The notes under the pieces were generated by a model. The model saw only the letters and a list, made by a program, of their open reading frames with translations. It was not told where the DNA came from and ran no database searches. A stretch of 61,891 nucleotides of DNA from Thermoplasmatales archaeon SG8-52-3 (GTDB lineage Archaea > Thermoplasmatota > E2 > DHVEG-1). Below, piece by piece: positions 41,387 through 48,117 of the stretch (position 1 is the stretch's first letter; each line of letters starts with the position of its first letter). Location: contig LSSG01000053.1 in NCBI GenBank assembly GCA_001595915.1, positions 69,416-131,306 of the forward strand, in the 5' to 3' direction. The position numbers and the translations under genes are program-made.

Positions 41387-42505
41387 TTGAGGGAGGTAAA
41401 AAATATGAGAAATAAAAAAATTGGAATTATAATTTGTATGATGCTATTAATTACAAGTTTATCTGTGTCTGCATCAATTGAAAAAGAATTAACTCAGAGC
41501 GTTTATTTAACAGATGAAATTAAAGATATTTTATTAATATTAGATTCATGTATCGTACCTGATAATGGAGAAGGTACTGCTGATCTACCTGCTGATTGCC
41601 CTTATGAATCATCTGAAGACCCATTCTATATAATTAACGGCTTACCACCTGATACTACTATCGAGTTAGAGCCGGTATTTGATGATTTTTATAATATTGT
41701 AAGGACTCCAGGTGGACCATTAGGTGGTGAAATCCTTGAATTTGATGCTACACTTGGATTAGTTGTAACAGGTACTGGTGATTTAACAGGATTTAATCGA
41801 ATTCTTTCAGTACCTGTCTCATTTGAAATAAATACTGCACCTCGAACTCCAGGTGATCCTGTTCAAAGCTTTATAAGTGAATTATTTCAATTAGAAGGAG
41901 AGTTATTTGGCGATCCAGATTTTTGTATGTTTCGAATAAAGGCAGGCGAATTTTATGGACTACCAAGTCCTGGTCAGTTCATATTAACAAAAATGCTTAG
42001 CGGTAATTTTAATATCGATAGTTTTTTTGATATAACATATCAAATTGAATTTGAGGGTTGTCCAGCTTCACCTTTAGATGATTATATGGGGACAACAGTT
42101 AATACAACTCGTTTGCAACAAGGTATTGAGTTTTTAAATGATCCACCAAGTAAACCAATTATTGATGGTCCAATAAATGGAGAAAATGGAAAGGCTTATC
42201 CTTATACATTTACTTCAATTGATCCTGATGGAGATGATATATCATACTTTATAAGATGGGGTGACGGAAAAGAAACTGATTGGACAACTTTTCAGACTTC
42301 TGGTCCACCTGGTTATACTGAAAGTCATTCTTGGGATACTCAGGGAACTTATATTATTCAAGCAAAAGCCAAAGACATATATAATGTTGAGAGCAACTGG
42401 GGTGAGCTTGAAGTTGAAATACCAAGAACCAGAGCAACATCTTATCTATGGTTCCTTGAGCGTTTTCCAATGCTGGAAAGACTACTAACTCTTTTGTTGT
42501 TGTAA
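41387..42505 (+). CDS. Secreted protein, unknown beta-rich domain + PKD-like domain + IPR tail
   Basis: Signal peptide (ATG 41405 likely); [15 protein letters not shown]; IRWGDG; ends [24 protein letters not shown]. Confidence 0.75.
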
Positions 42506-42552: not shown

Positions 42553-44754
42553 TTGAAGAATTGGTTAGTCAGAAAAGGTTTGGTTTTAGGGATAACTATA
42601 ATGATTATTTGTATAAGTGTTGTTTCAGGTAATTGTGCAAACTTCAAAAAGCTGAATAATATAATAGATGCAGATTTTATTGAGAATACATGGAACCGAG
42701 AGATACTTTATGAGAACCCACCTAGTGAGGAATGGAACTATACATTCGGAGGAACAAATAGTGAATATGGTTTTTCTGTTGATCAAACTACTGATGGAGG
42801 ATATATTATAACAGGAGGGACAGATTCTTTTGGTGCTGGAGATTATGATGTTTGGCTGGTTAAGACAGATTCCAATGGTTCTGAGGAGTGGAATCAGACT
42901 TTTGGAGGAACAGATTATGATGTGGGTTATTGTGTTCACCAGACAACTGATGGAGGATACATTATAACAGGAAGGACAGATTCTTTTGGTACTGATGGTG
43001 ATGTCTGGTTAATTAAGATTGATAGTGATGGTGATGAGGTGTGGAATAGGACTTTCGGAGGAACAAATTATGATGTAGGTTATTGTGTTCAGCAGACTAC
43101 TGATGGAGGATTCATTATATCTGCAAACACATTTTCTTATGGAGCTGGATCTTATGATGTTTGGCTTGTTAAGACGGATTCTAATGGTACTGAGGAGTGG
43201 AATCAGACATTTGGAGATACAGGTCAAGATACCAGTCAATTTGTTCAGCAAACAACTGATGGAGGATACATTATAACAGGTCGAACAGAATCATATGGCG
43301 CTGGACATTATGATGCTTGGTTGATTAAGACGGATTCTAATGGTACTGGTGAATGGATGCAGACATTCGGAGGTAACGATTTTGATTTTGGATATTGTGT
43401 TCAGCAAACAACTGATGGAGGATATATCCTTACAGGTTGGACAAGATCATATGGTGCTGGAACTTATGATGTTTGGTTGATTAAGACAGATCCAGATGGT
43501 TCTGAGATGTGGAGTCAAACATACGGAGGATATTATTCTGATGAAGGTTTTTCTCTAAAGCAAACTACTGATGGGGGATATATCATATTAGGTAATACAT
43601 GGAATTATGGCGCTGGAGATAATGATATCTGGCTTGTTAAAACCGATTCCAATGGTAATGAGGAGTGGAATCAGACATTCGGGGGAACAAGTGCTGAGTA
43701 TGGCTATTGTGTTCAGCAAACAACTGATGAAGGATACATTATAACAGGAAGAACTGATTCATTTGGTGCTGGTGGTGATTTATGGCTAATAAAGATAGAA
43801 AAGGAAAATAGTCCACCTTATGAACCTTCTAATCCCTATCCAGAAAACAACTCATTTGGTGTAGATGTTGAGACGAATCTTAGTTGGACAGGTGGTGATC
43901 CTGATGGAGACTCTCTAACATACGATGTTTATTTAGAAGCCAATGATTCAACACCAGACATTCTTGTTTCAGAAAATCAAACTGATACAACTTATGATCC
44001 TGGAACCATGAACTATAGCACAAGATATTACTGGAAAATCGTTGCATGGGACGAACATGGAGTTTCAACAGATGGCCCTATTTGGGATTTCACAACAATG
44101 TCAGACTCAAATCACCCACCAAATAAACCAATTATCTATTATGAAAACAATACCTTATTTGTTAATGCAACCGATATTGACAATGACGATTTAATGTACT
44201 TTATTGATTGGGGAGATGGAAACTCTGAAGAAACAGGTTATTACCCGCCTGGAGAAACAGTAGAAATTAACCATACTTATACATGGCCTGGTGTGTATTA
44301 TATTTTAGTAAAAGTAATAGATATTCATTATGCTGAAAGCGATTGGTCAGATCCATATGAGATAATTATAGAAAACAATCCACCTCAAGTTCCTGATATT
44401 GATGGTCCTAGCAGTGGTGTGGCTGGAGCGTCATATAATTTTACATTTATTTCAGTTGATCTTGATGGTGACGATGTTTATTTCTATATTTTATGGGGAG
44501 ATGGTTATGTTGAAGATTGGGAAGGTCCTTTTGCATCAGGTGAAGATTTTGAGATAGCTCATACCTATTCTAATAAGAAAACATATTTAATTGAGGCAAA
44601 AGCAAGAGATATTTATGGTGATGAAAGTCTTGTTGCCACACATGAGATAAATATCCCACGTACCAGAGCATCATCATATATTTGGTTTGAATGGCTGTTA
44701 GAACATTTCCCAATGCTGGAAAGACTGCTATTATTAGTTATAGAAATTAAATGA
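42553..44754 (+). CDS. Secreted 7-repeat beta-propeller protein with FN3-like and two PKD-like domains and IPR tail
   Basis: Seven about 48-aa repeats ([32 protein letters not shown]); ends [18 protein letters not shown]. Confidence 0.8.
42721..43800 (+). repeat. Intragenic tandem repeat, 7 x about 144 bp
   Basis: Recurring CAGCAAACAACTGATGGAGGATA-like and GAGGAGTGGAATCAGAC-like segments. Boundaries approximate. Confidence 0.75.
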
Positions 44755-45191
44755 AAAAGATAATTAGAATATCAAGTTTAATACTTAGATCACTAGTAAT
44801 TGCTTTTTTTGCAGTATCTATATTCTATGCTATTGATATTAATCCTGATACTATTTCACCACAACCGCTTATAGAAATTGAAAAATATACTAATGTTCCG
44901 AAAACCCATGGTGATGATCAATCGTATAATTGTTCAAAGTGTCATTATGAACCATTATATGCTGAATGTACAGATTGCCATATCCCTGACTACTGGATTG
45001 GAGATGATGATGGTACATATATGGCTCATCATGATTTATCCTATAATGGTTTTATAGACTGTTGGTCAGTTGATTGTCATAATCCTCCCAATCCAAATGA
45101 TATTAGATTCGTTAAAACTAATCTACTAGATGGAGGCGATTGGCAAGAATTTTGCTATACAAAATGTCATAACGAAAGTGAACTCGGTTAA
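44751..45191 (+). CDS. Small multiheme c-type cytochrome, N-terminally anchored or secreted
   Basis: N-terminal hydrophobic helix; CSKCH, CTDCH, CWSVDCH, CYTKCH; ATGA overlap with upstream gene. Confidence 0.7.
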
Positions 45192-45323
45192 TCATCAAAA
45201 TTATTATTTTAATATATATATTTAATAAAAAAATTCTTGTTTTTATGATTAATATACTGTCATTCTCAGTATTTGAACTGGAATTTAATAGTAAAAAGAT
45301 AGTAATTATTCTTTTTTAGGTTG

Positions 45324-45340
45324 TTGTAACATTTAAATAT
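45324..45340 (+). promoter_or_regulatory. TTGTAACA-TATA promoter class
   Basis: TTGTAACATTTAAATAT; 23-bp identity with the 42497 copy (TTGTTGTAACATTTAAATATCCA). Confidence 0.7.
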
Positions 45341-45346
45341 CCAACA

Positions 45347-46023: not shown

Positions 46024-48117
46024 ATGAAAATAAAAATTCATATGTTTTTAACAGTGATATTAATCTGCATTGGACTAATTGTAACAAATACGACCAGTAG
46101 TTTTAATTTCAAATCTAAAAAAAATATCGATGAAGAAGTAATTTCTGTATTAGTTTATCTAAAAGATCAAGTTGACCTAGATTCTATTAACATTAAAATG
46201 AATAAACAGAAAGCATCTCTTAGAGAGCGTCATGAGACGATTGTTTTAGCACTTCAAAATACTGCATCTGCTTCTCAAGCTCAACTACTTAAATATTTAT
46301 TTGAGTTGCAGGACCAAGATATTGTTAAAGAAGTTCAATGTTTTTGGATTGGCAACATTATTCGAGTTGATACCTATCAAAGTATGATCGATAAAATCGC
46401 TAAAAGAGATGATGTCTATAAGATATATCCTAATTATCAGATTGATTTAATCAAACCCCGCAAGGAAAACAATGAAATTAAGCTAAGTAATCGAAGTGAT
46501 ATTGAACCTGGTGTTGTAGCTGTTAGGGCTCCAGAGGTTTGGGAGGAATTTAATATAACTGGTGAAGGTGTACTTGTGGCAACAATTGATAGTGGAGTTG
46601 ATGGTGATCATCCCGCACTTGCTGGTAGATGGGCTGGAATAGCTGATCCTAGATATGAAGGTCATCCTGAGTGGGCATGGTTTGATCCATATGCTTATCA
46701 AAATGATTTTCCATATGATCTTAATGGTCATGGTACCCATACTATGGGTATTGTTTGTGGTGGTTCTCCTGGTGATCAAATTGGTGTTGCACCCGGTGCT
46801 TTATGGATATCTGCTGGGCTTATTCAAACACAGGATATTCCTCAATTTGTTTCAGATGCAATTGAATCATTTGAATGGTTGATTGATCCTGATGGAAATC
46901 CTGAGACTAATTGGGATGTTCCAGATGTTTGTTCAAATTCGTGGGGATTATATGAGCCACTTGGTTATCCTCAATGTGACGAAACATTTTGGACTTTCCT
47001 TGATGCTTGTGAATCAGCAGGAATTGTGATAATATTTATTGCTGGAAATGAGGCCTATAGTGGTTTACGTAGCCCTGCTGACAGAGCTATTGATGATTAT
47101 CGCACTTTTTCAGTTGGAGCAGTTGATGCAAATGATCCTGACTGGCCAGTTTGGATTTGGTCGTCTAGAGGTCCCACATATTGTACTCCAAATGGTAGCG
47201 AAGCAATTAAACCAGATATTGCAGCACCTGGAGTAAATATACGTTCATCGATACCTGGAGGTAGTTATGAATCTTATTCTGGTACTTCAATGGCTGCACC
47301 ACATGTTAATGGTGTTGTAGCATTAATGCGTGAAGTTAATCCAAATATTAGTGTAAAATCAATAAAAGAAATAATTTATCAAACAGCCTTTGACCTAGGT
47401 GACTTGGGTGAGGATAACGATTATGGTTGGGGGATGATTGATGCTTATGAAGCAGTTTTAATTATAGGTCAATCGCCTACAATACCTGAATTAACTGGCC
47501 CAACAAGTGGAAAGCCTGGGGAATCTTTGGAATTTTTATTAAATTCGACAGATCCAGATGGAGATGATATATATTATTTCGTTGACTGGGATGATGATAC
47601 ATCAAGTGAATGGATTGGTCCGTATTCATCTGGTGAAGAGGTAAATGTGAGTCATATCTGGGAAAATCCTGATACATATGAAATCAAGGCAAAATCAATG
47701 GATTTTACCTATGCTGAAAGTGACTGGTCAGAGCCGTTAATAATTAATATCACAACTAAGTCACCAGATCCACCTAGAATTAATGGTCCAACAAGAGGAA
47801 AAAAAGGGGTGTTTTATAATTTTACATTCAACTCTGTAGACCCAGATGGTAATGATGTATATTACTATATTATATGGGGAGATGGCTCTGAAAAAGAATG
47901 GGATGGTCCACATCCTTCTGGTGTAGATTTCGTTATTTCTCATTCCTTTCCAACAATTAAAACATTTACTATTGAAGCAAAGGCTAAAGATATTTCTAAT
48001 GCCGAAAGTAATTGGTCTAGTTTTGATATAACTATTCCACGAACAAGAACAACATCGTATCTATGGTTTCTGGAGCTTTTCCCATTGCTGGAAAGACTTC
48101 TGAACATAATTTTTTAA
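46024..48117 (+). CDS. Secreted S8 subtilase with prodomain, two PKD-like domains and IPR tail
   Basis: TIDSGVD, GHGTHTMG, SGTSMAAP triad; ends [24 protein letters not shown]. Confidence 0.92.
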   Translation: MKIKIHMFLTVILICIGLIVTNTTSSFNFKSKKNIDEEVISVLVYLKDQVDLDSINIKMNKQKASLRERHETIVLALQNTASASQAQLLKYLFELQDQDIVKEVQCFWIGNIIRVDTYQSMIDKIAKRDDVYKIYPNYQIDLIKPRKENNEIKLSNRSDIEPGVVAVRAPEVWEEFNITGEGVLVATIDSGVDGDHPALAGRWAGIADPRYEGHPEWAWFDPYAYQNDFPYDLNGHGTHTMGIVCGGSPGDQIGVAPGALWISAGLIQTQDIPQFVSDAIESFEWLIDPDGNPETNWDVPDVCSNSWGLYEPLGYPQCDETFWTFLDACESAGIVIIFIAGNEAYSGLRSPADRAIDDYRTFSVGAVDANDPDWPVWIWSSRGPTYCTPNGSEAIKPDIAAPGVNIRSSIPGGSYESYSGTSMAAPHVNGVVALMREVNPNISVKSIKEIIYQTAFDLGDLGEDNDYGWGMIDAYEAVLIIGQSPTIPELTGPTSGKPGESLEFLLNSTDPDGDDIYYFVDWDDDTSSEWIGPYSSGEEVNVSHIWENPDTYEIKAKSMDFTYAESDWSEPLIINITTKSPDPPRINGPTRGKKGVFYNFTFNSVDPDGNDVYYYIIWGDGSEKEWDGPHPSGVDFVISHSFPTIKTFTIEAKAKDISNAESNWSSFDITIPRTRTTSYLWFLELFPLLERLLNIIF

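Follow-up and report, generated by a model that had tools for sequence, protein, structure and literature searches.

The stretch of DNA considered here, hereafter the window, is a segment of 61,891 nucleotides (nt) from the genome of Thermoplasmatales archaeon SG8-52-3 (GenBank assembly GCA_001595915.1, contig LSSG01000053.1, positions 69,416 to 131,306 of the forward strand). At positions 44751..45191 of its plus strand lies an open reading frame (ORF) of 146 amino acids (aa) with four heme-type cysteine motifs, which directly follows a gene for a secreted surface protein of 733 aa (42553..44754, +) made of SBBP-type beta-propeller repeats and PKD domains. From its sequence, its relatives and their gene neighbourhoods, we consider it highly probable that this ORF encodes a small membrane-anchored c-type cytochrome binding four hemes covalently. 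The gene is a diverged paralogue of a copy that stands among cytochrome c maturation (ccm) genes on another contig of the same genome (C80).

The 146-residue ORF and its protein family

The protein begins with a putative signal-anchor (residues 1-29, 44751..44837) and then carries, all on the plus strand, H53 in a THG context (44907..44909), heme site 1 CSKCH (CX2CH, residues 61-65, 44931..44945), heme site 2 CTDCH (CX2CH, residues 73-77, 44967..44981), the pair H93-H94 in an AHH context (45027..45032), heme site 3 CWSVDCH (CX4CH, residues 104-110, 45060..45080) and heme site 4 CYTKCH (CX3CH, residues 135-140, 45153..45170). These four motifs are exactly those listed by a first-pass annotation of this DNA. 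Every one of the eight cysteines of the protein falls inside them, and its seven histidines are the four proximal ones plus H53, H93 and H94, which are candidate distal heme ligands. Counted over the 1,834 genomic ORFs that are 100 aa or longer, C-X2-4-C-H motifs occur 53 times in 586,228 residues, a rate that predicts 0.013 such motifs in the window ORF against the four observed; the pattern is not due to chance. Only three ORFs of the 1.9-Mb assembly have at least two CXXCH motifs, namely the window ORF, its 145-aa paralogue on C80 and a 488-aa protein encoded on the same contig as the paralogue.

Close homologues form seven clusters among 5.8 billion, all of them unnamed or labelled 'hypothetical protein', and a profile search of 1.84 billion representatives returned 33 proteins at E<0.001. 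In an alignment of 27 sequences, extending to about 24% identity, the invariant positions are C61, C64, H65, C73, C76, H77, H93, H94 (the histidine pair in 27 of 27), C109, H110, D117, R119, C135, C139 and H140, and H53 is nearly invariant (it is invariant in our A1 alignment and nearly so in A2). C104 is invariant in alignments of 7 and 17 sequences; in the 27-row alignment it falls out of register for the five members that have a CX2CH third site. A heme-type motif stands at all four sites in each of the 38 full-length members, with a spacing that is fixed at site 1 (CX2 in 38, CX1, CX3 and CX4 in none) and varies at site 2 (CX2 in 28, CX3 in 6, CX4 in 4, CX1 in none), site 3 (CX4 in 33, CX2 in 5, CX1 and CX3 in none) and site 4 (CX2 in 31, CX3 in 3, CX1 and CX4 in 2 each). 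Despite this drift, a histidine follows the second cysteine at every site in 38 of 38 members, and a conserved histidine combined with drifting spacing fits heme attachment sites, not zinc knuckles.

Non-canonical motifs are ordinary for this class of cytochrome. The CX3CH that the first-pass annotation had singled out at site 4 is indeed present, but it is peculiar to the diverged paralogue and not shared by its close clade, all other members of which have CX2CH there; elsewhere CX3CH occurs at this site in the distant members P0025 and P0026. In two members (L019:10216-10743, in genome G003, and P0035) the fourth site reads C-M-C-H. CX1CH is not known as a heme-attachment motif, and this would be either a degenerate or an unusual site.

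In Pfam, the class III cytochrome c family (PF02085, cut-off 22.9 bits) recognizes the C80 paralogue at 23.4 bits and comes just short of the window copy at 22.2 bits (residues 40-112). Within the set of 27 members, seven match PF02085 (E<=0.01), eight Cytochrome_C7 and five Cytochrom_c3_2. The match of the window protein to PF03264 (NapC/NirT/NrfH) is not significant (E 0.3, 11.2 bits), and NCBIfam holds no family that matches either the window protein or its C80 paralogue. A single-sequence search of the PDB with the window protein gave nothing meaningful; the family profile gave mostly c-type cytochromes, all of them weak and motif-driven matches. Searches of the literature on multiheme cytochromes in Thermoplasmatota, Thermoprofundales and Marine Benthic Group D (MBG-D), and on the deposited chromosome CP070798, found no description of this family. 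The family is unannotated in any curated library, and the window protein is best filed as an atypical paralogue within this unannotated family of small anchored tetraheme cytochromes c. It belongs to no single known family, because its Pfam score is borderline, the spacing order of its sites is different, its histidine count is short and its fold is unverifiable: as regards the cytochrome c3 fold and heme-core geometry, the AlphaFold2 (AF2) models have a mean predicted local distance difference test (pLDDT) score too low for a fold search.

The N-terminal anchor claimed earlier was recovered as a hydrophobic helix at residues 2-29, the one stretch that the AF2 models predict with confidence (block-mean pLDDT 65-86 in the run with 7 aligned sequences and 82-97 in that with 17). 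Basic residues (K2, K3, R6) stand at its start and the acidic stretch DINPD follows it, an arrangement that predicts an N-in, C-out topology with export through the N-terminal signal-anchor. As the close clade shows hardly any variation in the helix (L10-S23 is largely invariant) and no signal-peptidase site is conserved, we favour an uncleaved membrane anchor.

Maturation genes, lineage distribution and heme supply

Whether the genome has cytochrome c maturation genes, a check proposed by the first-pass annotation, is answered by contig C80, which carries a complete archaeal System I: intact ccmA, ccmB and ccmC, together with genes for CcmE (128 aa) and CcmF (692 aa). This CcmE ends in CPSKY and is of the archaeal CxxxY type. 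In Methanosarcina, CcmABCEF is both needed and enough for cytochrome c biogenesis and the cysteine of the CxxxY motif is required (PMC9084895). The gene of the 145-aa paralogue, the product of which is 74% identical to the window protein, is convergent with ccmE on this contig. A family gene likewise adjoins ccmE in every close relative with a readable context: in two NCBI metagenome-assembled genomes (MAGs) titled 'Thermoplasmatales archaeon' (L004 and L005), in the metagenome contigs carrying P0005 (L007-L010), in L011 and in the same-genus closed genome G003 (L019). On a 56-kb contig (JGI 3300041074, L026) the family gene is found within about 4 kb of ccmE, and a single cluster there unites it with two further multiheme genes, ccmA/C/E/F, hemA, sirC, ahbA, ahbB and a radical-SAM gene. 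An AsnC regulator also forms part of the L026 cluster, which looks like a self-contained 'cytochrome c island'.

Beside ccmF, C80 encodes a cytochrome b561/b556-like membrane protein (with a cytochrome b match). Together with ccmF and the ccm-linked tetraheme copy, this gene and that of the 488-aa protein form part of a conserved cluster. The 488-aa protein (L003:17504-18970, -), whose gene likewise lies beside ccmF and adjoins that of the cytochrome b, has 14 CXXCH motifs and two N-terminal helices, and consists of an N-terminal NrfH-like tetraheme module (TIGR03153, E 3.8e-17) with a DmsE-like extension. It has in addition three C-X3-4-C-H motifs, the first of which, EFCGTFCH (CX3CH), stands at the first NrfH heme position. 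On these sequence features the 14-heme protein is a candidate for the quinol-oxidising entry of an extracytoplasmic electron chain. In the distant member P0016, the family gene comes first in an operon that also encodes NrfD, an NrfC-like 4Fe-4S protein and a multiheme protein of 218 aa. Taken with the neighbours on C80, this operon makes the family look like a small cytochrome subunit or relay that cooperates with membrane quinone-interacting modules. Two other genes are conserved in relatives at a distance of a few kb from the ccm/tetraheme cluster (L007-L011, L003:1-651): one encodes a CCG-domain (HdrB-like) protein, the other an HdrA-like giant, about 1,470-1,710 aa long, in which several Pyr_redox_2 and 4Fe-4S domains occur.

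The Thermoprofundales (MBG-D) are among the most abundant archaea of marine sediments. They are generally described as peptide fermenters without respiratory genes (e.g. PMC7245137), the 2020 study having reported none in its Thermoprofundales MAGs (PMC7245137), and in 2015 a survey recorded only two putative c-type cytochromes, both from a single Thermoplasmatales single-cell genome (PMC4429474). The first-pass annotation regarded a tetraheme carrier as unexpected in a lineage usually viewed as fermenting, and its distribution bears this out. Of 41 relatives, at levels from genus to class, G003 alone has a member of the family and it alone has ALAD (HemB), while CcmC/F-type genes occur in G003 and in three genomes of other families, four in all. 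In an even sampling of the phylum (401 genomes, 162 genera), the family is present in two genomes, the source genome itself and one of the same taxonomic family, with coordinates that match CP070798.1.

A second check that had been proposed, for heme synthesis, came out negative. A Pfam search of the assembly found neither ALAD nor HemC. Queries of the assembly by tblastn, taken from L026 (its ahb genes) and from G002 and G003 (the complete ahb/hem cluster of each), brought up distant radical-SAM matches alone, at 27-32% identity, and no orthologue of any hem or ahb gene; the genes hemA, B, C, D and L, ahbA/B and sirC were thus not found in an assembly that is estimated to be about 79% complete, which limits the reading of this absence and leaves room for uptake or an unassembled locus. 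In G003 the genes ahbA/B, sirC, hemA, B, L, C, D and ahbC are grouped at 1,091,353-1,099,947 (C1). Contig C62 of the source genome (to about 33052) is collinear with G003 as far as 1,091,105, after which come 6 kb of other genes, and contig C55 (1-1400) is collinear from the other flank and likewise passes into other genes. Since both contigs run on in this way, the heme cluster is missing at the syntenic site and not merely hidden by an assembly gap there. Despite the missing hem genes, the Ccm system, the cytochrome b and three c-type cytochromes are intact.

A comparable case is CP070798.1 ('Thermoplasmatales archaeon isolate bin14', L005/L021), deposited as a whole chromosome, in which we found no Pfam match for ALAD, HemC or a CcmC-type protein. 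It keeps the tetraheme gene, ccmE, ccmF and the cytochrome b and has no ccmA/B/C beside ccmE, and gives the impression of a cytochrome c system in partial decay. Two readings offer themselves: scavenging of heme, or erosion of the cytochrome system in some members.

Origin and divergence of the window copy

Positions 44733..45221 (+) of the window, comprising the gene with 18 nt on its 5' side and 30 nt on its 3' side, match the C80 copy at 79.9% identity in an alignment of 492 nt. By this comparison the window gene is a gene-sized, species-specific duplicate of the ccmE-side copy that landed at the 3' end of the propeller gene. Its start ATG overlaps the TGA stop of the 733-aa ORF as ATGA. 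The translational coupling described in the first-pass annotation is therefore real as an overlap in the sequence, but it does not reflect a conserved partnership: no relative has a propeller-cytochrome gene pair, the duplication having simply landed there, and the coupling is probably a by-product of the insertion. We also considered the window locus as the ancestral ccm-linked site, an idea prompted by the occurrence of the same KH, RIO and HD genes at most 5 kb from the G001 copy. It was rejected because only housekeeping genes are shared and the 526-aa gene of the window is unrelated to the CARDB-like neighbour. A scan for promoters and terminators gave no signal above shuffled sequences, with bacterial-type models that are uninformative for an archaeon. 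Downstream of the cytochrome, an A+T-rich intergenic region with oligo-T runs (45192..45346, +) is the likely end of the transcription unit, to judge from the letters alone.

The two copies differ at site 4 by a one-codon insertion, the window reading TGC TAT ACA AAA TGT CAT where the paralogue has TGC GAT AAT TGT CAT (CDNCH). They differ also in two further conserved histidines, one in WHEFC, three residues before site 4, and one in GDH, near the C-terminus, which are present together in 34 of the 38 members. Both are missing together from the window copy, P0009 and P0031, and one member is without the first only (Fisher p ~5e-4 for the joint loss, not corrected for phylogeny). In the window copy each loss is a single base change, CAT->CAA (H132Q) and CAC->CTC (C-terminal His to Leu). 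The spare histidines on which the first-pass annotation relied (THG and AHH) are thus in place, but the count falls short: the family consensus has nine conserved histidines for four hemes and the window copy seven, so that at least one of its hemes cannot be bis-His. Together with the CX3CH motif, this loss suggests that in the window copy the potential is altered or a coordination site lies open.

The ratio of nonsynonymous to synonymous substitution rates (dN/dS) between window copy and paralogue is 0.17 overall and 0.09 for residues 31-125, at a dS of 0.74, and rises to 0.40 in the last 21 residues, the tail evolving faster than the core. The window copy is a constrained duplicate of long standing, its core under purifying selection and its tail divergent, and no obvious pseudogene.

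Proposed role and competing explanations

An extracytoplasmic tetraheme electron carrier, as first proposed, is supported by the adjacency of family genes to ccmE and ccmABC, the borderline Pfam class III matches, the conservation of the motifs and the presence of the Ccm genes. Of the two findings by which the first-pass annotation would have been refuted, a genome lacking maturation genes and unconserved histidines behind the cysteine motifs, neither was made. The signal-anchor would export the protein so that the heme domain lies outside and the N-terminus inside, and the protein would probably stay tethered at the outer face of the cytoplasmic membrane, where CcmABC, the CxxxY-type CcmE and CcmF would load the hemes onto it. 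Four hemes on about 97 residues would give a density comparable with those of c3, c7 or STC, which argues for a heme-to-heme electron wire rather than an enzyme. Electrons might pass from quinol to the NrfH-like 14-heme protein and/or the cytochrome b, from there to the small tetraheme proteins and on to surface acceptors or partners. The most likely role, we infer, is that of a relay between a membrane quinol-oxidising module and acceptors or partner proteins at the cell surface.

Class III cytochrome c3 of Desulfovibrio (PF02085) resembles the window protein in having four hemes on about 100 residues, a mixture of CX2CH and CX4CH sites and histidine ligands both ahead of site 1 and in the interval from site 2 to site 3; the Pfam score lies at the threshold. 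It differs in that the spacing order of c3 is 2-4-2-4 and that of the window family 2-2-4-2 or 2-2-4-3; the window protein, moreover, has no histidine directly after site 1, is membrane-anchored and not soluble, comes from an archaeal host and has seven histidines, below the eight needed for bis-His ligation of four hemes. STC (CctA, Shewanella) and the triheme c7 (PpcA, Geobacter) are likewise minimal multiheme shuttles of very high heme density with a histidine pair between sites 2 and 3, and for c7 there are also the Cytochrome_C7 matches in eight of the 27 members and weak PpcA matches in the PDB search. However, STC and PpcA are soluble periplasmic proteins with CX2CH sites only, and have no significant sequence similarity to the window family. 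NrfH, NapC and CymA share the plan of a single N-terminal transmembrane helix with four c-hemes at the membrane's outer side, but PF03264 does not recognize the window protein and the NrfH-like module of this genome resides in the 14-heme protein of C80, of which the window protein is more likely a partner than an equivalent. The heptaheme cytochrome MmcA, which is membrane-bound in Methanosarcina acetivorans, is of another protein family and heme number and is linked to the Rnf complex, whereas the linked genes here are those of the cytochrome b and the NrfH-like multiheme protein. It is alike in being archaeal, in the streamlined Ccm machinery with a CxxxY CcmE (PMC9084895, PMC6703419) and in its proposed part in electron transfer at the membrane or outside it.

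Several points weigh against a working tetraheme cytochrome at this locus. The AF2 runs with 7- and 17-sequence alignments reached a pLDDT of 44.7 and 53.5, which does not establish the fold or the ligands; the heme-synthesis genes were not found; two conserved histidines are lost; the tail has diverged faster than the core; the Shine-Dalgarno-like GAGGT that precedes the parent's ATG is gone from the window copy, which has the ATGA overlap instead; and no orthologue of the window copy was found elsewhere in 5.8 billion protein clusters. All but the first also favour the view that the window copy is a redundant duplicate heading for loss, its product not made or not matured, as do the 18 nt of copied upstream sequence, with which its own promoter may have been lost, and the complete genome G001, which keeps the family gene without ccmC and ALAD, so that eroded systems exist in the lineage. 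We nevertheless hold this to be improbable, since the ORF is intact, its eight cysteines and four proximal histidines have been kept over a dS of 0.74 with strong constraint on the core, the ATGA overlap offers a route to translation, ccmABCEF and the other cytochrome genes are all intact ORFs, and the same histidine pair has been lost from two distant members that are otherwise intact. Another possibility, which is unlikely though worth keeping in mind, is that the source archaeon and at least one closed-genome relative make no heme and run an extracytoplasmic electron chain on scavenged heme, the open-coordination heme of the window copy serving a ligand-binding, heme-handling or catalytic role and not that of a plain wire.

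Two explanations of the motifs themselves deserve very little credence. An extracellular filament subunit of the OmcE type, in which the two co-varying histidines would be inter-subunit heme ligands, is suggested by profile matches to the C-terminal two-heme segment of PDB entry 7tfs, the OmcE nanowire (22.6 bits overall, 15.2 for the segment), and of 9yuq, a 16-chain multiheme entry, as well as by the nine consensus histidines for four hemes, one above the bis-His need, of which two are lost together. These matches are however weak and motif-driven, the conserved helix without a conserved cleavage site argues for an anchor and not for release, and the mature domain of about 115 aa reaches roughly half the length of the 7tfs chain (232 aa). 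Very improbable, too, is the Zn-binding that the first-pass annotation had kept as an alternative, that is, a zinc ribbon, rubredoxin-like or other non-heme metal protein that merely carries CxxC pairs. It could appeal to the four cysteine pairs, to one member with a weak DnaJ_CXXCXGXG match (E 0.0031) and to one zinc-finger match in the PDB list, but we reject it because the histidine after the second cysteine is kept at four of four sites in the 38 members whatever the spacing, because the family gene is conserved beside ccmE and because the significant family matches are all to cytochromes; the export signal and the co-occurrence of the family with Ccm and heme synthesis also stand against it.

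On the preferred reading as a tetraheme cytochrome c, the genome holds a package of ccmABCEF, a cytochrome b, an NrfH-like 14-heme protein and two small tetraheme cytochromes, which is found also in a few relatives and once in one cluster with the archaeal heme pathway. In a group considered fermentative, this suggests that a few members carry out a respiration-like electron transfer and might hand electrons on from the membrane to partner cells, minerals or humic substances. Should the apparent absence of heme synthesis be real, it would raise the prospect of heme scavenging by an archaeon that makes cytochrome c, and the unannotated tetraheme family offers a defined target for expression and spectroscopy.

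Some surface proteins of this genome may be added. Conserved beside ccmF, C80 encodes a surface protein with a single CDTCH motif and a PKD domain (L003:12543-13688, -), which may be a monoheme cytochrome exposed at the surface of the cell; its orthologue L004:4823-5659 ends in an ERFP-type tail, for which NCBIfam gave no match. The 733-aa propeller protein of the window has the C-terminal tail PRTR...FPMLERLL. A PR[TSNAK]R motif within the last 45 residues is found in 44 ORFs of the genome, including 41387-42505, 42553-44754 and 46024-48117 of the window, and nearly all 44 end in a tail of the form '(I)PR(T/N/S)R ... [WF]LE(R/Q)FP.L.RLL'; most of those checked are PKD-domain surface proteins.

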